Of a stretch of 64,000 nt of DNA, positions 5,859 to 34,319 are shown one piece after another (position 1 is the stretch's first letter; every line of letters starts with the position of its first letter). Source of the DNA: Dictyostelium discoideum (lineage: Eukaryota); the NCBI GenBank assembly GCA_000004695.1, contig CM000152.2, positions 64,001 through 128,000 of the forward strand, written 5' to 3'. The position numbers were made by a program, and so were the translations under genes. The notes below the pieces were generated by a model. The model ran no database searches and was not told where the DNA came from. It saw only the letters and a program-made list of their open reading frames with translations.

Positions 5859-6424
5859 ATGGTTACCTTTAATTCATATTTTATACATTTGGCTTTAAAA
5901 CAATATGAATCCAAACCACAACTTAAATCAGAGATGCAACCATAAAATGGTGTTGAACATTTTCTATTAATGCAATCTAATGAATTTAGACAATCGGTGG
6001 CTCTAACACAATCTTCACCAAATTCTGCAAAGAATGCTGGTTGACAAGTTTTGTTTTGGCTTTGCAAAGTGAAAGATAATGTTGAATTAAATGAAACACA
6101 ACTACTGCCTATTTCACAATCACCACTATCTTGACAAATCTCCCCTACTTTCAACGATGGAACACAAATACCATCCTTGCATCTATCATTGGCATAACAT
6201 CTTTGTCCAGTGAATGGTGATGAATTATTACATAACTGACCTAACTCTGAACAAGTATTAATTGAACATGCTAAATCTGATGTTATTGGTATTCGAGAAC
6301 CAACTAAACTTGGTTTTAGTTTAACTTGGCTTTGACAATTTTCAATCTTAATTAAAAAAAAGAGTAATACAATAAAATATTTTAAATAACTTTTAATTCT
6401 ATCTTTATTTTTTTTAAAAATCAT
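5849..6424 (-). CDS. Secreted cysteine-rich (EGF/furin-like spacing) protein, 191 aa, possibly exon 1 of the downstream Cys-rich gene
   Basis: ORF begins with a signal-peptide-like segment (MIFKKNKDRIKSYLKYFIVLLFFLIKIENCQSQ). It is followed by about 24 Cys in C-x-x-x-C / C-x-D-G-x-C patterns. It ends at a stop, but a GTAACC sits at the last codon, so a splice into the downstream exons cannot be excluded. Confidence 0.45.
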
Positions 6425-6946
6425 TATTTTAAAAAAATTTTAAAAAAAATAAAAATAAAGAGTATTAACTTTCTTTAAGAAATATTTTTTTTTATTTTTA
6501 TTTTATTTTTTTTTTTTTTTTTTTTTTTTATTAATAAATCGATGAAAAAAAATGAAAAAAAAAAAAGTATTCAAAAGTATTAAAAAAAGTGTTAAAAAAA
6601 AAGTGGTACTATTGAATTTAGTAAATACAAATAGAACACTCAAAAAAACACAAAATGAATGTAACCATTCTATTTTTTTATTTATTTATTTTTTTGAGGA
6701 ACAACGAGAGGGAATAATAAAATAAATTAAAAAAAAACCAAAATAATTGCATTTGAATTCTCTACTTGGCAGTTATTTGATTAAAAAATTAAAAAATGAT
6801 TTGTAAAATTGACCATTTATTCTTTTATTTTTAATTTTGATAATAATAAATATTGATTAAATTATGACATACCTATAAATTATTTTCAAAACTTACATAT
6901 TGTAATACGGTTTTTCCAATTCTTTATGATTTTAATATTATTTAAT

Positions 6947-21655: not shown

Positions 21656-23205
21656 CTAATTAATTTATTTTGTTTATTTATTTAATGTTATTAGTATTCA
21701 TTTTATATTTTATTTTAGTGATCAATAAAAAATAAAAAAACACTTACTTTATTTATTTTATGTGATTGAAGTGTATGTATGCGAAAAAAAATATGAAAAT
21801 TTTTTACACTATAAAATTTTTAAAAAAAATAAAAAAAAAAAAAATAAAAAAAAATAAAAAAAAAATAAAAAAAAATAAAAAAATTATCAAAAAAAAACAA
21901 AAAAAATTACAAAAATGAATGTATATTCATTTCACTGTTCATAATCCCACTTTTTCACAGAAACTTTAAAAAAAAAAACAATAAAATAAAATAATTTTTT
22001 ATACACAATTAAAAACAAATATATTTAAATAATCATTTTTTATTTTTTATTTTTTTTTATTTATTTTTTATTTTATTATTATTTATTTTTTATTTTATTA
22101 TTATTTATTCATTTTTTTTTTTATTATTTCTCAAATGGGTCCAAGTGTGTTAAGATATTAATATCAAAAAAAAAAAAAAAAAAAAATATATAAATAAAAA
22201 GTATATATTGTAAAAACCATTCAAGTTTGAGCACATACATATTAATTTTATATGGGCTCCCATATAAAAATATTTGAAATTACAAAAAGTGCGCAAATTT
22301 GAATGGTTTTTACAACAAGTATTTGCAACCCAAATTAAGTTAATAAACCAAAAAAAAGAGACTAATTTTAAACATAAAGATTTTAATTTTTTTTTTAATA
22401 TTGAACATTCTTTATTTTTTTTTTTTTTATTTGTCATTTTATTTTTTTTTTTTTTATTATATTTTATTTTATTTTTGAAAATTGAGTTGAAAAAAAATTA
22501 GAAAATAAAAAATACCTTTTTCCAGTTTTCCTAAAATAAGTAATACAAAATTTGCACTGTCGGACTTTACCCCAAAATTATTTTTTTTGATGTTTTATAA
22601 ATTAATTTAAATAATTTTAAATAATAATAATGAACATAAAATTGTAATAATATTTGATATTTCAAACAAAGATGAAATAAAAAATAAATAAAATATAAGA
22701 ATAAATTTAGTTTGATATTAAAATAATTATTGATTAGTGGGAAAAAAAAAAATTAATATATTTCAAGTGAATAAAAAAAAAAAAATTTTAAAAAAAAAAA
22801 ATGAAATAACGAATGGTGGAAAAAAAAAAATAACGAAAAAAATAATGCACTTTGTAAAACTGAAATTTTTCAATTTTTGAAATTTTTTTTTTTTTTATTG
22901 TTTTTTTACGCAGATACCAAACACGTAAGTTATTACATATCATGTATCACTTAGGGTCGCTATGTCACTCTCTCAATCAATTTCTTGGTGATGATTTAGC
23001 TATACTTCAATTTATAATAATAGATTTATTTGGATTCAATTAAAATGTTAAAGATTATATTGGGTTTGATAATGGATTGAAACCTATCACACAGAGAGAA
23101 AATGAGAAAAAGGATAGAGAGTGTACACAGAGATTATAAGTGGGACTCAATCAATCAACCAACTTCAACATCAGCTACTAATTTATAAATTAACCTATAG
23201 ATAAA

Positions 23206-23758
23206 ATGATCTCCAAATTCTCTCTCTTTGTCGAAATCGGACGTGTTGTTGTCATCAACTATGGTGAATACATCAACAAAACTGCCGTCATCATTGATGT
23301 CTTGGATCAAAACAGAGTATGTATTTCACACAATCAATTTGGGTTGTTGGTATGAAATTAAAGAACTAACAAAATTATTTATTATTAATAATTAGGCTTT
23401 AGTTGCTGGTCCACACAGTGGCGTCGAACGTCACATCATTAACTTCAAATGGATCAATCTTACTCCATTAAAAGTTAACATCCAAAGAGGTGCCAGAATT
23501 AACACCCTCATCGCTGCCATCAAAGCTGCTGACCTCGAAACCAAAATTGCTGCCCTCTCTGCCGTTAAGAAAATCAACGCAAGAGCCACCAAATCAAACC
23601 AAACTGATTTCGAACGTTTCAAAGCCAACCTCATCAGACGTAAACTCAACAAGAAAGTTTCAGGTGAAGTTAAGAAATTAGTTAACATTGCCAACAGAGC
23701 TGCTCACAAGAAAGCTGTTGCCCAAAAAGCTGCTGGTCACGTCAAGAAAACTTTATAA
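23206..23758 (+). CDS. rpl14: 60S ribosomal protein L14 (eukaryotic L14e, KOW domain), 157 aa; exons 23206..23316 and 23396..23758
   Basis: Translation is [37 protein letters not shown]|[59 protein letters not shown]..., the RPL14e signature. Codon usage (GCC/ATC/AAC/GTC rich) is typical of highly expressed Dictyostelium genes. Donor AGA|GTATGT, acceptor taattag|, phase 0. Confidence 0.85.
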
Positions 23759-24367
23759 ATAAAATGTTTACTAATAATATAAAATTTTAAAAATATATAA
23801 AAACTATTAGTATTATTTTAGACCTCAAAAAAAAAAAGGATTTTTTATAGGTTACCCAACATTTATATCTCAAATTTTAAAAAACTTCAATTAGATTAAT
23901 TTTAAGAATGTTAATAATATTGGATTATTTTAATTTAAAAAGATATCAAAACTATTTTTTTTTTTTACTTTTTTTATTCATTTGTGTTGAATTGTATTAA
24001 TATAGATTTTCATTTTATTTTATAATTTCCTTAAAAATATGGATAAAAATAAAAATAGATTCAAATGAATTGTTTTAGATATATATTTTTTTTTTTTTTA
24101 TTTTTTTTTAATTTGGAAATAATAGAAAAAGGTTTAAAATTATTGGATATTAATTTGGTCATATTTTAAAATTAGGTGAAGGTTTAACCATTGATGAAAT
24201 TAATAAAGGATTATTTTATTTTTTTTATTTTTATTTTTTTTTTTTTCATTTTTTTATTTTTTTTTATTTTTTTTTTTTTTATTTTTCATAATTTTCATTC
24301 AAGAACGAACATATATATTTTTTCTATTTTTTTTTTTTTTTTTCTAAAACAAAAGAAATAAATAATT

Positions 24368-27113
24368 ATGCCATCAATTAATGAAAATGAAGATATTATT
24401 AATAAATTAAAGATGTCAACGATAACAGATGATATTATTATTCAACCAAGTATTGATGATTTACCATATGAAGAAGATGTTTCAAAGAATCCATACTCTG
24501 TTAATTGTTGGTTAAGATATTTAGAGTTTAAACAAGGTTCACCACAAAAACAAAGAAATTATATATATGAAAGAGCCATTAGAGAATTACCAAGAAGTTA
24601 TAAAATTTGGCATCAATATCTATTAGAAAGAACTTTAGCAATTAGAGGTAAATGTATTTTAGAAAATTCATTTGAGGCTGTAAATACATTATTTGAAAGA
24701 TCTTTAGTATTTTTAGATAAGGTAAATATTTATTATTTATTAATTTGAAATTTTAATAAATTTATTAATTTATTAATTTTTAAAATTTTATTTATTTTTT
24801 ATATAAAAAAAAAAAAATAGATGCCAAGAATTTGGATTGAATATTGCGAATTTTTAATGATACAAGAAAAGATAACATTAACTAGAAAAACATTTGATAG
24901 AGCATTAATAGCATTACCAGTTACACAACATTATAGAATTTGGAATGAATATACTAAATTCATATTGAAGAGATCTATACCATCATTAACATGTATTAGA
25001 GTTTATAAGAGATACTTAAAGATTCAACCAGAGAAAGTTGAAGAGTATATTGAATATTTAATAAAGATTAAAGAGTGGCAAGAAGTTGTCAATCAATTAA
25101 TTAAACTATTGGATAATGTTAAATTTAAATCGATTAAAGGTAAGAGTCGTCATGATCATTGGTTACAACTTTGTGAAATTCTATCATCATATCCAAAACA
25201 GATTACAGGTGTAGATGTAGATTCAGTGATTAGAAGTGGTATTGGCAAATTCAGTGATCAAATTGGTAAACTTTGGTGTTATCTATCAGATTATTACATT
25301 CAATTGGCACAATTTGAAAAGGCAAGAGACATTTTCGAAGAGGCATTAACATCGGTTGGAACAGCAAGAGATTTCAGTTTTATTTGGGAATCCTATACAC
25401 AATTTGAGGATTCATTAATCGCAGCAAAACAAGAGATACTAGAAGAGGATCCATCCGAAGATAATCTATTGGAATTTGATATTATCATTGAACGTTATGA
25501 AAATTTAATTCAACGTCAACCTTTATTATTGAATTCTGTAATGTTAAAACAAAATCCAAATAATGTTCAAGAATGGTTAAAACGTGTTAACCTATACTCT
25601 AATCCAACTCCAAATGTTAAAATGATCATTCAAACTTTTACTGATTCAATTAAATCAATTGATCCACAACTTGCAAAAGGTAAACTTTCAACTATCTATT
25701 CAACTTTTGCTCATTTCTATGAACAAAATAATAAATTATCTCAAGCTCGTTTAATATTTGAAAATTCTTTAACTGTAAATTTTAAAACAATTGATGATTT
25801 ATCAACATTATATTGTGATTATGCTGAAATGGAATTAAAACATAGGTAAATTATTTTATTTTTATAATATATTTAAATAAATATATATATATATGTATAT
25901 TAATATATTTTTTTTTTTTTTTTTTTTTTATTAAAATAGAAATTATGAAAAAGCAATTGAAATTTTAAAAAGAGGTACAGTTTCACCAAAAAAACAAAAT
26001 ACAATAATTGAAGAGAATGAACCAGTTCAAAAGAGATTATTTAAATCAATTAAAATTTGGACATTTTATGTTGATTTAGAAGAATCATTTGGAACTTTTC
26101 ATAATACAAAATCAATTTATGAAAAGATGATTCAATTAAAAGTGGTTACACCACAAATTATTTTAAACTTTGCAAAGTATTTAGAAGAGAATAAATATTT
26201 TGAAGATATGTTTAAAGCTTATGAACATGGTGTACAATTATTCCTATTTCCACATGTTCAAGATATTTGGATCACTTATTTAACCAAATTCATTCAAAGA
26301 TATGCCGGTATGAAATTGGAGCGTACTCGTGACCTATTCGAACAGGTTCTATCAAAAGTACCACCAAAAGAATCGATTATCTTTTATTTAATGTATGCAA
26401 ACTTTGAAGAACAATATGGTTTAGCGCGTCATTCAATGGCTGTCTATGATCGTGCAGCTAAATCTGTCGATAAAGAAGATAGATTCAAAATGTACTTGTT
26501 ATATATTCATCGTGCTTCAGAATTCTTTGGTGTTAACCAAACTCGTGAAATCTTTTCAAAAGCAATCGAACAATTACCAGATCAATACGTTCGTGATATG
26601 TGTCTTAAATTCGCTGATATGGAAAAGAAATATGGTGAAATTGATCGTGCTCGTTCTATCTACATTCATGGTTCTCAATTCTCTGATCCAAGAACTTCAA
26701 TGTTTTATTGGAATACTTGGAGTGATTTCGAAAAATTACATGGTAATGAAGATACATTCAAAGAAATGTTAAGAATTCGTAGATCTGTTCAAGCAAGTTA
26801 TATTACTCAAAATCCAACTTTAGCTTTATTAAATAAATTAAATAATAAAGATGATAAAGATGATAAAAATCAACAACAAAAACAACAACAACAACAACAA
26901 GAAAAACAACAACAACAGCAACAGCAACAACAACAAGCATCTACTTTAACCAAATCAAAACCTGTCACTGTTTCACTACCAGAAACAATTCAATATAATA
27001 AGAAAATCGAAAATGATGATGAAATTAATTTAGATGATGATGAAGAAGAGGAAGAGGAAGAAGATCAACTAGCAATTAAAGCTTTTCCAAAAACATTATT
27101 GAAAATAATATAA
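24368..27113 (+). CDS. Pre-mRNA splicing factor SYF1 / XAB2 (HAT-repeat protein), ~850 aa; exons 24368..24721, 24821..25845, 25940..27113
   Basis: Extensive colinearity with human XAB2 from memory: NPYSVNCWLRYLEFKQGSP ~ NPFSVKCWLRYIEFKQGAP; MPRIWIEYCEFLMIQEKITLTRKTFDRALIALPVTQHYRIW ~ MPRLWLDYCQFLMDQGRVTHTRRTFDRALRALPITQHSRIW; GKLWCYLSDYYIQLAQFEKARDIFEEA ~ GKLWCSLADYYIRSGHFEKARDVYEEA; VTPQIILNFAKYLEENKYFEDMFKAYEHGVQLF ~ ATPQIVINYAMFLEEHKYFEESFKAYERGISLF. Donors are AAG|GTAAAT and AG|GTAAAT (phase 2), and acceptors are aaaaaaatag| and aaaatag|. Codons are rejoined as ...HR|NYEK. Confidence 0.85.
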
Positions 27114-27595
27114 AATAAAATAAAAAATTTTAATCATCACTTTTTTTTTGTTTTTTTTAACATTATACAAAAATATTATAAATAGTAATAATAATAATAA
27201 TTAAAAAAACTAAAGATAAATATTTATTTCTTAAATAAACTGGTATTAAAAAAAAAAAAAAAAAAAAAAAATCCAGTATAAAGTTAAATCTTATTTTTTT
27301 ATTTTAATAAACAATTGTGTTCCAGTTGCTGAATTACCACCAATATCTTTACATAAAGATAAAATATTGTGGTTGTGGTAATTATAAAAATAATTATTAA
27401 TTTTTAATTACAATGACTGTATCAATTTTTTTTTTTTTTTAATATTAATAAAAAAAATTAAATAGAAAATCAATACACTCATATCCTATTAATAAATAAA
27501 ATAAAAATTATTTTATTTTTAATTTATAAATTTTATTATCGTTAATATATTTTTTTTTTTTTTTTATTATTATTTTTTTTTTTTTTTTTCACATT

Positions 27596-27975
27596 TTAAT
27601 AACGTGGCAAATAAAATGGTTTGATGTACTGATGAAAAGCAATATCTCTATCAGTAATAGTTTTTCTTTTTCCATGAGCAGCCATTATAGCACAATCGGT
27701 CATTATAATATTCATGTAGCATTCAAAAGCAGTACGAAGAGCATGAATAGCACCGACACTCATTCTATAGCTTTTAGGATCGGTCCAAGCCCACAAAATC
27801 TGTCTTTTGATTTCTCTCAAAACTAAATTTCTTCTCTTAATTGGTTTTTGGGGATCATTAAAAGCTGGAGGTGAAACTGTTGGTCATCAGAAGATAATGG
27901 TGATAATGATGATGGTGATAATTGTTGATGGAAAGATCTCTGTAATCTTTTTTGCCTGCCCCTTGTTGGATTCAT
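27596..27975 (-). CDS. Histone H3-like histone-fold protein; 5' region frame-disrupted (possible divergent H3 variant or pseudogene)
   Basis: Minus-strand frame (27882..27596) reads ...KPIKRRNLVLREIKRQILWAWTDPKSYRMSVGAIHALRTAFECYMNIIMTDCAIMAAHGKRKTITDRDIAFHQYIKP. This aligns to H3 alphaN ([20 protein letters not shown]) and to alpha2-alpha3 ([46 protein letters not shown]). About 21 residues corresponding to the alpha1 helix are absent. An ATG at 27975 opens a different frame (MNPTRGRQKRLQRSFHQQLSPSSLSPLSSDDQQ..., an H3-tail-like basic N-terminus) that runs into a stop. The histone-fold frame has no start codon of its own. Confidence 0.45.
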
Positions 27976-29232
27976 TTTTTATTTTTTTTTTTTTGTAAAT
28001 AAAATTCCTTTATTTATTTTTTTTTTTTATTATTTTTTTTTTTTTTATTATTTTGTTATTTTTTTTATAATTATTATTTTTATAATTATTCCCATTGAAA
28101 TCTAAAATTTGAACTAATGAAAAAAAGAAATGTTTTTCATATTTTTATATCTTTTTTTTTTTTTATATCGAGAAAAAATTAAAAAATGTTTAAATAAAAA
28201 AGATTTTTGGTAGTTTTTTTTTAATGATGTTCCTTGAAATTTTTATTATATTAACACTTGTCATATTATTATTAACACTTGTCATTTTTATTATTTTTTT
28301 TATTTTTATTTTTTTATTTTCTTTTTTTTTTTCCCAATGGGCCAAAAGACTTTAAAAAAAAAAGATAATTAATTTTATTTAAAATAAAAATCAATTATCA
28401 GCTATGATTTTTGAAATTATTTTATTTTAAAATAATATTTTCTACTTATTATTATTTTTTTTAATTGATTATCACCACAATGACTGTTGTCAAACATCAC
28501 TGGTCCAAATCTCTGGTGGATTTAGTGATTGAAATGGCGAAAATGTCCAAACCATACATTTTCTATAATCTGAAACTGTTGCAGCAAATATGTCTACCAT
28601 CTTTTGACCATTTGATACTGTAAATTGATTTTGAATGTGCTCATTTAATTGAATGTATTAATTTTGGTGTTGTTGTTCTTTTGTTACTTATATCATCAGA
28701 ATCATCCTCCATAAGCTCATAAGATATTGGTTCCATATTCTATAATTTTATATTTTAATCTCCACCACATGTAGCTAATCTTTTACCATCAGGGTAGTAA
28801 TAAATAAAAATATAGGTGTTGCTATTTGATTTTATTGAAAATAGAAAAAGATTGGAAAATTATAATTTCATATTTTTGTTAGTTTTTTTTTTTAATTCCA
28901 TTTAGCATTATGATAAACCCAATAAGGTTTTAGAATTATCATTGATATTTGTGAAAAATGATTAAAAAAAAAAAAAAAAAAAAAACATTTCAAATAAATA
29001 TCAAATACACACGTGTGTACCATTAAATAAAATAAATATTTAAAAAAAAAAAAAAAGAAAAAAAAAAAAATAAAAAAAAAAAAGCAAACCAATTTTGATT
29101 TGAGTTGTTTAGAAAATTAAAAATCTACAACAACCGTTAGTTATATAAATATTATTATTTTATTTTTATTTTTATTTTATTTTTATTTTTATTTATTTAC
29201 AAAAGAGTCTATATATATATGAATTATAAAAA

Positions 29233-29829
29233 TTATTGTATAATACATTTTGAAGTATTCGATGTTGTTGTTGTTGGATCATTTAAAACACCATCTTTAC
29301 AATATAAATGACAACGTACTACCTGTTTAAATATTTCATTAACACCCTGATTACAAAGTGAAGAACATTCTAAATACATAGTTGCTTTAATTTCTTTTGA
29401 TAATGCTAAACCTTGTTTATATGAAATTGGTGGCATTTGATTATTTTCTTTTAATAAATTTATAGTATTTTCATCTTCACGTAAATCACATTTTGTTCCT
29501 AATAAAATGATTGGTGTATGAATTGATGGTGCATATTGTCTAATTTCAGGTATCCATTTTTTTGAAACATTTTCAAATGATGTTGGTGAATCAATTGAAA
29601 AACATAATATAATCACATTAGTATTTGGATAGGTTGATGGACGAGTATTATCAAATTCTGCCAATGCTGATGAATCCCAAAATCCAACATGACATACTTG
29701 TTTATTATATTCTATATCTAATGAAGTTGCATCAACATGTGATGGTACATAACCTGTTGGAAATGAACCTGTTGAATATGTCATCATCATTGTAGTTTTT
29801 CCAGTTTTACTATCACCTAATACTAATAA
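29233..29829 (-). CDS. Atypical Rho-family small GTPase (Rac-like) lacking the catalytic Gly/Gln of the G3 motif; main exon, small 5' exon unresolved
   Basis: Translation is LLVLGDSKTGKTTMMMTYSTGSFPTGYVPSHVDATSLDIEYNKQVCHVGFWDSSALAEFDNTRPSTYPNTNVIILCFSIDSPTSFENVSKKWIPEIRQYAPSIHTPIILLGTKCDLRED...YLECSSLCNQGVNEIF...SKCIIQ. It has G1 GxxxxGKT, G4 TKCD, G5 ECSSL and a CAAX box (CIIQ), and is colinear with Rac1. G3 is WDSSALAE instead of WDTAGQE. An acceptor (tataaag|) precedes the exon. A candidate ATGCAAAAG mini-exon at 29925-29933 lacks a canonical GT donor. Confidence 0.65.
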   Translation of the reverse strand, partial: LLVLGDSKTGKTTMMMTYSTGSFPTGYVPSHVDATSLDIEYNKQVCHVGFWDSSALAEFDNTRPSTYPNTNVIILCFSIDSPTSFENVSKKWIPEIRQYAPSIHTPIILLGTKCDLREDENTINLLKENNQMPPISYKQGLALSKEIKATMYLECSSLCNQGVNEIFKQVVRCHLYCKDGVLNDPTTTTSNTSKCIIQ

Positions 29830-30140
29830 CTTTATATATGATCTTATATAAATATTACATTTTAAAATTACTATATAATTAGTAAATTTTAAATGATAAA
29901 CTAATAAAAATAATAATAATATTACTTTTGCATTGTTTAAATTTCTTGTTTAAATTAAAAAAAAAAAAAAGTAAAAAATTAAAATTAAAAAAAATAAAAA
30001 AAAAAACACAAAGAAACGAAAAAAAAAAAAAATTAAATTAAAAATAAAAAATCTTCTTTGAAAATATCCAACTCACTTTTCAAAATAAAAAATTTTTAAT
30101 AGAAATAAAAAAAAAGCCAGTAATAAAATAATTTTCCAAC

Positions 30141-30453
30141 GTTCAAAAAAGCTATTTTTAAACTTCAATTCTTTTTTAAAAAAAACAAAATTTAAAAAAA
30201 AAATTTGTGTTTATTTTTTTGAAAAAAAATGCATTTAAAAATAAAATTAAAAAAAAAGAAAAAAATAATAATGATGATGATAAAAATGATCCAAAAAAAC
30301 AGCTATTTTTAAACTTCAATTCTTTTTTAAAAACAAAATTTAAAAAAAAAATTAAATTTAAGTGTTTACTTTTTTGAAAAAAATGCATTTAAAAATAAAA
30401 TTAAAAAAAAAGAAAAAAATAATAATGATGATGATAATAATGATCCAATAAAA
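30141..30453. repeat. Tandem duplication of a ~155-bp AT-rich unit (2 copies)
   Basis: 30141..30299 and 30300..30453 are near-identical (agctatttttaaacttcaattcttttttaaaaa...aatgcatttaaaaataaaattaaaaaaaaagaaaaaaataataatgatgatgata...aatgatccaa). The region is intergenic. Confidence 0.8.
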
Positions 30454-30750
30454 AAAAAAGTTATTTTTTATTTTTTATTTTTTTTATTCCCTTCTCAATA
30501 ATATTATAAAAAAATTTCAAAAGAGCCCAACAATGGATTAAGAATAAGATTTAGAGTTGGTTAAAAGAAAAATAAGTTTTCAAAAAATTGATTTAATTTT
30601 TATTTTTTTTTTTTTTTTTAATTTTTTTTTTTTTTTTTTTTTACAAAATTTTTGGAATTCATGGTATAAAAACACACTTTTTTTTTTTTTTTTTTTTAAT
30701 TTGTTCTAGATTTCTTTGCGATATAAAGTGGCAAAATAAAACAAAACAAA

Positions 30751-30811
30751 ATGAGTCAAAAAAGTGTGTGCGTTACTTATTTATTATGGCTATTTTTTGG
30801 GTAAAAAAGTT

Positions 30812-30843
<32 letters not shown>

Positions 30844-31218
30844 TTGTTTATTATATAAATTCCTTGTTTTTTTTTTTTTTTTTATCCATATAGATTGTTT
30901 GGGTAAGTTCATTAAAAATAAAAAAAAACCAATTATTATGGCATAGTATTAGTATTAACAACCACCTATTTTTTTATTTATATAGTATCCATAGATTTTA
31001 TCTAAATCGTCCATGTAGTGGAGTTTTATATCTTTTCACATGTGGCTGCTTTTTTATTGGTAAATAAATAATAATAAAAAATTAATATAATTTAATGTAT
31101 TTTAAAAAAAAAAAAAATTAAACTCTTTATTCTATTTTATTAACATACAGGATGGTTCATTGATATTTGTTTAATTCCTGGAATGGTTGAAGATTATAAT
31201 GCAAAAGTAAGTTTTAGC

Positions 31219-31253
<35 letters not shown>

Positions 31254-31592
31254 AAAGTACACATTGATTTGATATACTAATATTTTTTATTTATAAAAAA
31301 AAAAAAAAAAAAAATATAGTATGACTCAATGAATAAAACAACAACAACAGTAACTCAAGTTGTTGTTCAACCAGTTTACCAAGGTTCACCACAACAACAA
31401 CCATACGGTGCCCCACCACAACAACCATACGGTGCTCCACCACAACAACCATACGGTGCTCCACCACAACAACCATACGGTGCTCCACCACAACAACCAT
31501 ACGGTGCTCCACCACCACAACCATATGGTGCTCCACCACCAGGCGCATATGCTCCACAAGGCAATTACCCACCACCATATGGTCCACAATAA
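30751..31592 (+). CDS. TM2-domain protein with PQ-rich repeat tail, ~151 aa; exons 30751..30800, 30986..31059, 31151..31206, 31320..31592
   Basis: The spliced product is MSQKSVCVTYLLWLFFG-IHRFYLNRPCSGVLYLFTCGCFFIG-GWFIDICLIPGMVEDYNAK-YDSMNKTTTTVTQVVVQPVYQGSPQQQPYGAPPQQPYGAP(x6)...GPQ. The HRFYL...GGWFIDI core matches the TM2 domain consensus (G.DRFYLG...G.GIW.LID.I). Donors are GG|GTAAAA, G|GTAAAT and AAA|GTAAGT, all acceptors are T-rich ...tag/cag|, and phases are consistent (2,1,0). The C-terminal tail is 6 tandem PQQPYGAP units. Confidence 0.5.
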
Positions 31593-31738
31593 AGTAAAAC
31601 TATTTATTTCAAATAAAAAAAAAAATAAATAATGATAATAATAAAAATAATATGAAAAATTAAATAAAATATTATTTAAATAAAAAAAAAAAAAAAAATG
31701 TTCAAATTAAAAATATTGGATATTTTCAGATTTTCAGG

Positions 31739-31790
<52 letters not shown>

Positions 31791-31819
31791 AAAATTTAAT
31801 TTGTGAAAAAAAAAAAAAA

Positions 31820-32613
31820 ATGACATCAAAACATAGAAATACAAATAAAAATAAGAAAAGTAATCAAAATTTAAGTAACAATAGTAGTCATAATGATGAA
31901 TTATGTAGTGGTGGTAGTAGTAGTAGTATCAATAATAGTAATAGTAGTTTAGATGATGTTAAGAACAAAGGAGAGATATTTCAATCTATAAATAACATTT
32001 TCAATGAATTTAATAAACAAGAAAAAGAAAGAAATGATATAGCTAGAATACCACATAAGATTTGGGATAATTATTGGGTAAAAAAAAGTATAAGAACCAT
32101 TGAAATTATATTTTGGATTTCATTAGGTTTAGGTACTGCTTATTATACTGATTTGGTTAATGTAATTTTATATAGTGAAATTATTAAAAGGTAAAAAAAA
32201 AAAAATTTTATTTTATTTATTTTCTAAATAATATAATACTAATAATAATATTTATTATTATTATTTTTAGATTATATTTTAATATTGGAATTGTTGGATT
32301 AGTTGGATTTATTTCAATTTATATTTATTGTGGTTATTTCTCAAAAGTTGATGTAAAAAAGAATGATGATGATTGGGAAAAGGTTCACCCAAAATTAATT
32401 CCATTTGCAACAATTTTTTTAGTAATTTTTTCTTTTGGGTAATTATTATTTATTATTTAGTTTAAAAATTTATTTATCTTTTAAAATTTATTAATTTCTT
32501 TTTTTTTTATTTTATTAAATTATAGCATAATGATAGGGTGTTGGCCAGTTTGGGGATTTTTAACACCACTTTTTTTATTTATTTATTTCGCATCTATATC
32601 TTATATAATTTAG
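31820..32613 (+). CDS. Small multi-pass membrane protein of unknown function, ~208 aa; exons 31820..32190, 32271..32438, 32526..32613
   Basis: An N-terminal Asn/Ser-rich region is followed by 4 predicted hydrophobic helices (IIFWISLGLGTAYYTDLVNVILY; IGIVGLVGFISIYIYCGYF; LIPFATIFLVIFSFG; IMIGCWPVWGFLTPLFLFIYFASISYII). Donors are AG|GTAAAA and GG|GTAATT, and acceptors are ttatttttag| and tttatag|. Phases are consistent. Confidence 0.4.
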
Positions 32614-32862
32614 AAAAGAGAGTATAAAAATAAAAAATAATTGAATAATAATTTAGAAAAAAAAAAAAAAAATTAAAGAATTTTTATTATTTTATTATTT
32701 TGGTTTTTTTAAAGTGAATTTTAAAATCACCTATTAAAAAAAAAAAAAAAAAAAGAAAAAAGAAAAAAAAAAAAATAATGATACTATTATATGAAATATT
32801 TCATATAATTTTTAAAATATAATTTTTTTTTTTTTTAATTTATATTTATATATTTATATAAA

Positions 32863-33960
32863 TTATTGACGATAATGATTTGTATCAAATAATAAAGATA
32901 CACCATGAGCTATATCCAAAACCAATTCATAAGTTAAAAACATGATACAAGAATTTGGAACTACACGAATGATATGTGGACCAGCACCACCAAATAAACC
33001 TCTTATACCTTCTTCTCTTGCGATTAAAGTTAAACCTTGAATGACACCAGTATATTTTGATTTTACACCTGGTTTAGTTTGTTCACGTAAACGAGTTCTA
33101 ACTACTTCATGAGGATAGGTTGTGATTGCAGCAATTAATTTAGCAATACCAGCAGATATTAAATATTCACTTGTTGATAATTCATTTGGATTTTCGTAAC
33201 CTTTTAAACGTTTTTCAGTGATGATACGATTCTTAAAGCCTTCATAGAGTACGAATTGGAAAGCACTCTCTGAGACTGAAATCAATGATGCACCCAATCC
33301 CTTGTAGAAACCCAATGGTCCCTCTTCTCTGAGAATCGATAGACAACAATGGAACATACCACGATATTGAGTACCCTCATTGAAATTCTTTAATGAGGTT
33401 TGTAATTGCATACGTGTTTTAATTAACCAAATGGGTGAAGTTGTAATTGCAACTGCTGCACCCGAACTAACGGCACTTGTAATCCAAAGTATTGGTCCAT
33501 CAGTGTATCCAAGTTTATTCATTATTGATTTGGTAAAACTATAACTACTGAAATGAATCGCTCTCGCTGGTGCAACACCTAATAAATGGGCCCCCAACCC
33601 TTTCCAAAGTCCACTCTTACCATCTCTTTTCACTAAATGATATAATGAATATGCTGTAGTTGGCACAAATCTTGGTTTATCTTTAACTAATAAATTGGAA
33701 TTCTTTGCTTGTAATTGAGTTTTTATAACTTCTAATGGTGATGTGCATATAACTCCTGCTGCTCCACCAATACCACCTGCTATAAAATGTAATAATGCAT
33801 TCTTTGATCTTTTTTTTCTATTATTATTATTATTATTATTATTGATATTATTATTATTATTTTGTATATTTATTATATTATTTATATTATTTAAATTATT
33901 GGGTATTTGAATTGAATTTGGAACTGATAAAGTTGTATAATTTATAAAAGTGGGAAACAT
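32863..33960 (-). CDS. Mitochondrial carrier family (SLC25) protein, 365 aa, single exon; closest resemblance to pyrimidine-nucleotide carriers (Rim2/SLC25A33/36)
   Basis: Three tandem Px[DE]xx[KR]xxLQ-type repeats are present: HFIAGGIGGAAGVICTSPLEVIKTQLQ; SAVSSGAAVAITTSPIWLIKTRMQLQ; ISAGIAKLIAAITTYPHEVVRTRLREQ. Each is followed by G..KG motifs (GLWKGLGAHL, GFYKGLGASL, GLFGGAGPHI). The N-terminal 50 aa is poly-Asn. Confidence 0.8.
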   Translation of the reverse strand: MFPTFINYTTLSVPNSIQIPNNLNNINNIINIQNNNNNINNNNNNNNRKKRSKNALLHFIAGGIGGAAGVICTSPLEVIKTQLQAKNSNLLVKDKPRFVPTTAYSLYHLVKRDGKSGLWKGLGAHLLGVAPARAIHFSSYSFTKSIMNKLGYTDGPILWITSAVSSGAAVAITTSPIWLIKTRMQLQTSLKNFNEGTQYRGMFHCCLSILREEGPLGFYKGLGASLISVSESAFQFVLYEGFKNRIITEKRLKGYENPNELSTSEYLISAGIAKLIAAITTYPHEVVRTRLREQTKPGVKSKYTGVIQGLTLIAREEGIRGLFGGAGPHIIRVVPNSCIMFLTYELVLDIAHGVSLLFDTNHYRQ

Positions 33961-34282
33961 TTTATATATTTATTTTATAATTTTTTATTTTTTATTTTTA
34001 TTTTATTTTTTTTTTTTATTCTCAAGAATATTTATTGAAATCGGTCGTTTATTATAATTATAATTAAAAAACGAGTAAAAAAAAAATAAAAAAAATAAAA
34101 AAAATAAAAAGTTCGTTTTTTGATTTTTTTTAAAATTTTGACGAGAAAAAAAAAAAAATAATAATAAAATAATATAAAAAAAATACTTTTTCATATGACG
34201 ATAAAAATATGTGTGTGGTTTTTAATTTTTATTAATTTTCAAATTTTCTCTTTATTTATTTATATCTAGATATTTTTATATT

Positions 34283-34319
<37 letters not shown>

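Follow-up and report, generated by a model that had tools for sequence, protein, structure and literature searches.

Histone H3.v2 of Dictyostelium discoideum AX4, a probable remnant of a repeat-tailed H3 paralogue with an intact orthologue in a sister genome

In Dictyostelium discoideum the centromeric histone H3 is H3v1, according to Dubin et al. (2010; PMC2995078). The same study listed h3v2 (DDB_G0277979) as an H3-like gene, described as 'considerably smaller ... and contains an intron', cloned it behind GFP from genomic DNA and reported GFP-H3v2 as non-nuclear. Because it was known as short, intron-containing and non-nuclear, H3v2 was omitted from H3 trees (PMC8600027). For candidate centromeric histones (cenH3) in general, four sequence features have been used (PMC7052976): an insertion of one residue or more in loop 1 (L1), a divergent tail, absence of the conserved Gln of alpha1, and a divergent fold.

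We analyzed h3v2 in a 64,000-nt stretch of the AX4 genome (hereafter the window, to whose first letter all positions refer unless another locus is named) together with its counterparts in other genomes. With canonical H3 the gene shares the Pfam Histone domain, the alphaN pattern KP..R...LREI.R, the alpha2 pattern A..AL..A.E.Y and HxKR.TI..D, but the h3v2 fold is only 30-40% identical and carries no ARTK, K9 or K27 tail motifs. Canonical H3 is also almost invariant, whereas the evolution of h3v2 is compatible with neutrality, and unlike canonical or replacement H3 genes (H3a/b/c type) h3v2 is solitary, outside any histone cluster. The comparative evidence also argues against the published and annotated structure as that of the real or ancestral gene: it places the ancestral start at 27975, finds former coding sequence inside the 'intron' and reveals two disabling or truncating lesions.

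Annotation and reading frames of h3v2 in AX4

The locus was identified as D. discoideum AX4 h3v2 (DDB_G0277979, UniProt Q54Z07, XP_642045.1 / EAL68162.1, 'Histone H3.v2', 89 aa). The translated model exons were 100% identical to XP_642045.1 / Q54Z07, and splicing the corresponding pieces of the window rebuilt the database protein exactly (Table 1); h3v2 is a gene already catalogued and described, not a new one. The primers of Dubin et al. align to the window from 28285 onward and from 27596 onward. A SYF1-like gene ending at 27113 is convergent with h3v2, which agrees with the tail-to-tail arrangement with SYF1/XAB2 proposed in the first-pass annotation, made from the letters of the window and a list of its open reading frames (ORFs). 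No second h3v2-like copy was found in the 64-kb window, and the exact 89-aa model, the 50-aa ORF from ATG 27975 and the Met-start fold ORF had no match in assembled public runs. Elsewhere between genes, at 31291-31632, overlapping ORFs on both strands with the repeat unit HRMVVVVE / HHNNHTVL resemble a coding-like simple repeat.

Table 1. Features of the h3v2 locus of AX4, in window positions
Feature	Position	Strand	Basis
Annotated exon 1 (MTSVNNNMTS, 30 nt)	28256..28285	-	database model, rebuilt exactly
Annotated intron, 420 nt (GTTAAT...TTAAG)	27836..28255	-	predicted in database model
Annotated exon 2, stop codon included	27596..27835	-	database model
ORF from the conserved ancestral start, 50 codons and stop	27823..27975	-	ORF reading and orthologue alignment
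Frame-break junction GAT/GACCAACAG	27885..27886	-	pairwise alignment; ~199 nt of the L002 tail missing
Open histone-fold frame, 95 codons	27599..27883	-	Pfam Histone match and alignments; stop at 27598-27596
Junction of the AX4-specific 57-nt in-frame deletion	27801..27804	-	alignment columns 625-681

The DNA of the window is AT-rich, and the ATG at 27975 on the minus strand directly follows an A-run. The ORF opened by this ATG encodes MNPTRGRQKRLQRSFHQQLSPSSLSPLSSDDQQFHLQLLMIPKNQLREEI followed by a stop, starting with MNPTRGRQKRLQRSFHQQLSPSSLSPLSSDDQQ and finishing with REEI, and ends at 27823. The histone fold lies in another frame, at an offset of -1, and is translated as PTVSPPAFNDPQKPIKRRNLVLREIKRQILWAWTDPKSYRMSVGAIHALRTAFECYMNIIMTDCAIMAAHGKRKTITDRDIAFHQYIKPFYLPRY up to its stop. 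This frame begins directly after a TGATGA; its first ATG is the internal Met of YRMSVG, with none before residue 41. On both points, an ATG frame that runs into a stop and a fold frame that opens after TGATGA with no ATG, direct reading of the sequence bears out what had been noted in the first pass. In a working H3, the start codon, N-terminal tail and fold share one reading frame, a feature that the AX4 sequence lacks.

The fold frame contains the tail remnants PTVSP and PAFNDPQKP, alphaN (KPIKRRNLVLREIKR), the end of alpha1 (QILWAW), L1, alpha2, L2 and alpha3. It matched Pfam Histone (PF00125) with 41.7 bits, above the cut-off of 26.4, so its similarity to histones is not due to chance, and it also matched solved H3 and Cse4 chains. 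The H3 alphaN and alpha2-L2-alpha3 segments recognised earlier in this ORF were upheld, the assignment of alphaN being correct according to the alignments with both the intact orthologue described below and canonical H3. Were h3v2 translated, its peptides would include NLVLREIK, QILWAWTDPK or SYRMSVGAIHALR.

In the AX4 frame, AlphaFold2 predicted three helices, at residues 14-34, 43-69 and 78-91 (alignment of 25 sequences; mean pLDDT 63), and, for the intact orthologue, helices in the order alphaN, alpha1, alpha2, alpha3 (pLDDT 48). Foldseek searches of the PDB with the predicted models gave no significant match. Since both pLDDT values are low and Foldseek was blank, no structural conclusion, such as a fused alphaN/alpha1 helix replacing alpha1, was drawn.

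Orthologues in sister genomes and the lesions of h3v2

HMMER, run exhaustively over 1.84 billion representatives, gave 12 significant hits, comprising one close relative, P0002 (E 9e-33), followed by generic H3 matches only. Word-indexed searches performed weakly here: the AX4 query returned itself only, P0001 escaped the P0002 query, and canonical H3 crowded the results of the profile query; the orthologue was found by the exhaustive search alone. P0002 comes from GCA_054859385.1 (locus L001) and a further protein, P0014, from GCA_054859355.1 (locus L002), both assemblies being labelled D. discoideum at NCBI. The gene order Mito_carr, TMEM128, TM2, Ras/Roc, histone, SYF1-like and RPL14e is common to the window and to both loci, whose flanks are ~91% identical to the window (21700-34300) and ~96% identical to each other. 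Neighbouring genes differ between AX4 and these genomes by a synonymous divergence (dS) of 0.07-0.11 (about 0.08), which is far above what is expected within the species. The two genomes were therefore treated as sister taxa and not as AX4-like strains; despite their label, they may represent cryptic sister taxa. A block at 28333-28420 (minus strand), 3' of the Rho-like gene and 5' of h3v2, is near-invariant in all three genomes, and the spacer outside it is poorly conserved; the block could belong to the 3' UTR of the upstream gene or regulate that gene.

At L002 (6001-6858) the histone gene is one uninterrupted ORF of 285 codons in a single exon (KAM9954615.1). The encoded protein has a short, basic N-terminus (MTRGGQKRSFNQQLSPSLSSD), then a tail in which a 30-nt repeat encoding (K/E)KPAPxVSPA occurs about 10.7 times, and ends in TPASNDHHKPIKRRNLVFREIKRLQKSYKLLLPSLPFSRLVKQILWAWTDPISYRMTVGAIYALRTAFECYINIIMKDCSIMAAHGKRKTITARDIAFHQYIKPFYLPRY. 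Aligned with canonical H3 (40% identity), it has a full alphaN, alpha1, L1, alpha2, L2 and alpha3, with an L1 longer by 2 residues, and it matched H3 chains in the PDB with an E-value of about 6e-13. The L001 copy carries a 4-nt frameshift deletion in the tail and an AAA to TAA nonsense codon inside alpha1. Its NCBI model (P0002, KAM9952583.1) was rebuilt exactly by removing two 'introns' of 23 nt (6104-6126) and 72 nt (6584-6655), which straddle the 4-nt frameshift and the TAA exactly and correspond to stretches that are coding in L002. Judged from these alignments, the introns of KAM9952583.1 look like an annotation artefact.

Against this intact form, the first 30 codons from ATG 27975 of AX4 are homologous to the orthologue N-terminus, and the sequence beyond the deletion junction is out of frame. 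The ATG frame departs from the orthologue frame at 27886/27885 because the ~199 nt missing there are not a multiple of 3. Two more tail deletions in AX4, of 36 and 201 nt, are in frame, and the remnants PTVSP and PAFNDPQKP stay in the fold frame. Within the first 90 nt from the ATG there are three indels relative to the orthologue (6, 9 and 12 nt); all being multiples of 3, they suggest that reading-frame constraint held until fairly recently.

The second lesion lies in the fold. A 57-nt deletion (27804/27803, its position ambiguous by 2 nt owing to an AC microhomology) removed exactly 19 codons, encoding LQKSYKLLLPSLPFSRLVK and equivalent to Y54-R72 of H3, a segment made up of the final turn of alphaN, the linker and the initial ten residues (two-thirds) of alpha1. 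The complete series from alphaN through alpha1-L1-alpha2-L2 to alpha3, present in L002, is thus absent in AX4, which is 19 residues short. The first-pass annotation had about 21 residues of alpha1 and L1 collapsed into ILWAWT: the gap is real, but it amounts to 19 codons, and the orthologue and H3 alignments identify QILWAW as the surviving end of alpha1, followed by a retained L1 (TDPKSYRMS), which exceeds that of H3 by 2 residues. A HMMER local alignment had instead placed VLREIKRQILWAW on alpha1 of H3, with alphaN missing. This placement was rejected, as it merely avoids a gap; the orthologues show the 57-nt deletion, and L002 has a full alphaN and alpha1.

Across the syntenic orthologues, AX4 therefore shows two kinds of lesion (the out-of-frame tail deletion and the 57-nt deletion), L001 a frameshift and a TAA, and L002 none. 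The lesions of AX4 and L001 are independent of each other.

Substitutions were compared with Nei-Gojobori estimates, for which the h3v2 counts are small (16-24 changes). In four neighbouring exons, AX4 and the sister genomes differed by a dS of 0.07-0.11 and a dN of 0.001-0.014, with an omega of 0.02-0.16 (pooled 0.05). Over the alignable codons of h3v2, dS was 0.075-0.096, dN about 0.05-0.06 and omega 0.63-0.66; between L001 and L002 (271 codons), dS was 0.033, dN 0.029 and omega 0.9-1.0. The split of h3v2 changes into synonymous and non-synonymous was no different from the neutral expectation (p 0.55-0.81; 16-24 changes) and unlike that of the neighbours (Fisher p 1.4e-5). A comparison of dN/dS with orthologues had been proposed as a check in the first pass, and its outcome, an omega of 0.63-1.0 for h3v2 against a pooled 0.05 for the neighbours, is compatible with neutrality. 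Fast adaptive evolution of a functional variant also fits, since only 16-24 substitutions were counted. Lesions, conserved synteny, an intact orthologue and substitutions compatible with neutrality are all directly observed at h3v2.

Decay of the AX4 copy and competing readings

We consider it likely that in AX4 h3v2 survives as a pseudogene or decaying remnant, its annotated exon 1 and intron being artefacts. h3v2 would be a lineage-restricted, fast-evolving H3 paralogue, of which the AX4 copy is decaying and most likely non-functional. The ancestral form would have been a single-exon gene of 285 residues, with a basic N-terminus, around ten 10-residue (K/E)KPAPxVSPA repeats and a complete H3 fold. 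In AX4 the tail repeats would have been collapsed by three deletions, one of them out of frame, so that translation from ATG 27975 would stop after 50 codons, before the fold, and the 57-nt in-frame deletion would have taken two-thirds of alpha1 together with the end of alphaN. The 89-aa database model would then have come from a gene finder salvaging the frame that remained open. We infer that no functional protein is made from h3v2 in AX4.

Several observations count against such decay. The AX4 fold frame still runs for 95 codons without a stop, the omega of 0.64 from ~16 substitutions would also fit a fast-evolving functional variant, the lengths of the three small indels within the first 90 nt are each divisible by 3, and for the AX4 product AlphaFold gave, with a low pLDDT of 63, the order helix-loop-helix-loop-helix. 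Among the options raised in the first-pass annotation, a decaying H3 pseudogene nevertheless came out as the best supported, given independent lesions in AX4 and one sister genome, an intact single-exon orthologue in the other and substitutions compatible with neutrality. That annotation had also named, as grounds for giving up its reading, the identification of the locus as a known expressed H3 variant with exactly this structure. The locus is indeed a known gene, but the structure known for h3v2 is a different one, and as this upstream mini-exon and 420-nt intron are predicted only, the identification does not clearly overturn the reading.

The foremost competing reading, which we regard as unlikely, takes the annotated model as right: with the ancestral start lost, the upstream ATG (28285) and the 420-nt intron would yield an 89-residue, tail-less fold protein with a new, non-chromatin role in the cytoplasm. 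The model has GT...AG boundaries and a clean translation, no stop interrupts its fold frame, the three helices given by AlphaFold follow the order of the histone fold, and the GFP-H3v2 signal was non-nuclear (PMC2995078). Against this stand features of the upstream exon and of the intron. Exon 1 and the splice donor lie in a 21-nt tandem duplication specific to AX4 (28285-28244, minus strand; ATGACAAGTGTTAATAATAAT / ATGACAAGTGTTAATATAATA), which supplies the start codon and the donor of the database model; L002 has one copy, reading MTSV and then a stop, and L001 is without ~310 nt of upstream spacer, so that in the sister genomes the exon is either missing or without coding capacity. The intron is atypical, not only in its length of 420 nt. 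Its 5' 280 nt have 10.7% GC, and its 3' 140 nt (27975-27836) have 37% GC, compared with 34.6% in exon 2; these 140 nt start exactly at ATG 27975 and are homologous, in the frame of exon 2, to coding sequence of the orthologue. An intron of the neighbouring SYF1-like gene, for comparison, is 93 nt long (GTAAAT...ATAG) with 2% GC.

Lesion-bridging introns of the same type are demonstrably artificial in L001, and the annotation behaviour that produced those ORF-rescuing introns would explain the AX4 model too. Because genomic DNA was fused behind GFP, GFP-H3v2 fluoresces with or without splicing, and unspliced read-through would add MTSVNNNMTSVNIIKISRNIIKKKLPKIFFI before a stop. Substitutions compatible with neutrality also speak against a protein with a new role. 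On this comparative sequence evidence, the annotated exon 1 is probably not a real exon, and the database model built from it and the 420-nt intron is probably an artefact.

An error in the reference, with one base missing near 27885, appears decidedly improbable. The real AX4 protein would then have ~126 residues, from MNPTRG to PRY, and keep the 19-residue deletion. One base added at the junction does create a continuous ORF beginning MNPTRGRQKRLQRSFHQQLSPSSLSPLSSDDPTVSPPAFNDPQKPIKRR, and the compositional boundary and A-rich context mark 27975 as the ancestral start. The break, however, falls at the edge of the ~199-nt deletion and not in a homopolymer run, and Dubin et al. amplified 28285-27596 anew from genomic DNA of Ax2, stating that their clones were sequence-confirmed (PMC2995078). 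Even with the frame repaired, alpha1 would still be missing and the evolution of the gene still compatible with neutrality.

Joining of the two frames during expression, by a programmed -1 ribosomal frameshift (e.g. at C AAA AAC, 27853-27847) or a non-canonical micro-intron, is hardly credible: the fold frame is indeed -1 relative to the ATG frame and the near-slippery C-AAA-AAC precedes the stop codon of the first frame, but the heptamer is not canonical, between the deletion junction and the putative slip site homology to the orthologue exists in the fold frame only, and the sole GT...AG interval in the region is 13 nt long and does not restore the frame. A micro-intron between the ATG and the fold was rejected, as the only GT (cagGTTTCACCTCCAG) leads to this 13-nt interval and a stop codon; the non-canonical intron raised in the first pass found no support, the frame break moreover coinciding with the deletion junction.

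Likeness to cenH3 and consequences for the family

The intact orthologue shows all four cenH3-candidate features of PMC7052976. L1 has an insertion of 2 residues relative to H3 in both AX4 and L002. The tail is divergent, with the KKPAP/KEPAP repeats of L002 alignable to the H3 tail for a few residues only and remnants of them left in AX4. At the position of the alpha1 Gln, the orthologue has Ser (LPFSRLV), and the position is deleted in AX4; the fold is divergent, with 40% identity to canonical H3 over its length. Drosophila CID has the same Ser at the Gln position and was the best solved-structure match of the orthologue, gapless through L1, with 53.8 bits vs 52.3 bits for canonical H3, a negligible margin. 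The validated CenH3 of D. discoideum is H3v1, whose representative was missing from the 12 significant hits of the exhaustive scan. Given the negligible margin between CID and H3, the identity of CenH3 as H3v1 and the absence of H3v1 from these hits, h3v2 can be called cenH3-like by sequence and no further, as far as the evidence goes. The suggestion in the first-pass annotation of a highly derived, centromeric-like H3 thus holds for the sequence features of the intact orthologue; it does not extend to function in D. discoideum, where the functional CenH3 is H3v1 and GFP-H3v2 was non-nuclear (PMC2995078).

An H3-like protein of 146 residues (P0012), encoded at 2512-2952 of L003 and 1362-1802 of L004 (Logan assemblies SRR29362697 and SRR29362702), shares cenH3-type hallmarks and the motifs LPFSR, SYRF and HGKR with H3v2. 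Its gene adjoins a tRNA-intron endonuclease gene, and there is no synteny with the h3v2 locus.

A more far-reaching proposal, speculative and on balance doubtful, gives the D. discoideum species complex a second cenH3-like paralogue of H3, with H3v2 as its remnant. The paralogue would be a 285-residue protein with a proline/lysine repeat tail, confined perhaps to a special context (e.g. the sexual cycle); one lineage or more would still have it intact, and separate losses would be under way elsewhere, the laboratory reference strain among them.

Databases and papers present h3v2 as a cytoplasmic 'histone H3 variant' that is short and contains an intron. The locus would be a clear case of gene finders inventing introns over frameshifts and stops, independently in two genomes. 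If the AX4 copy is broken, the h3v2 gene model needs revision, and the negative GFP localisation would be uninformative about the family. The protein to study would then be the intact 285-residue form of the sister taxa, with its cenH3-like sequence hallmarks.
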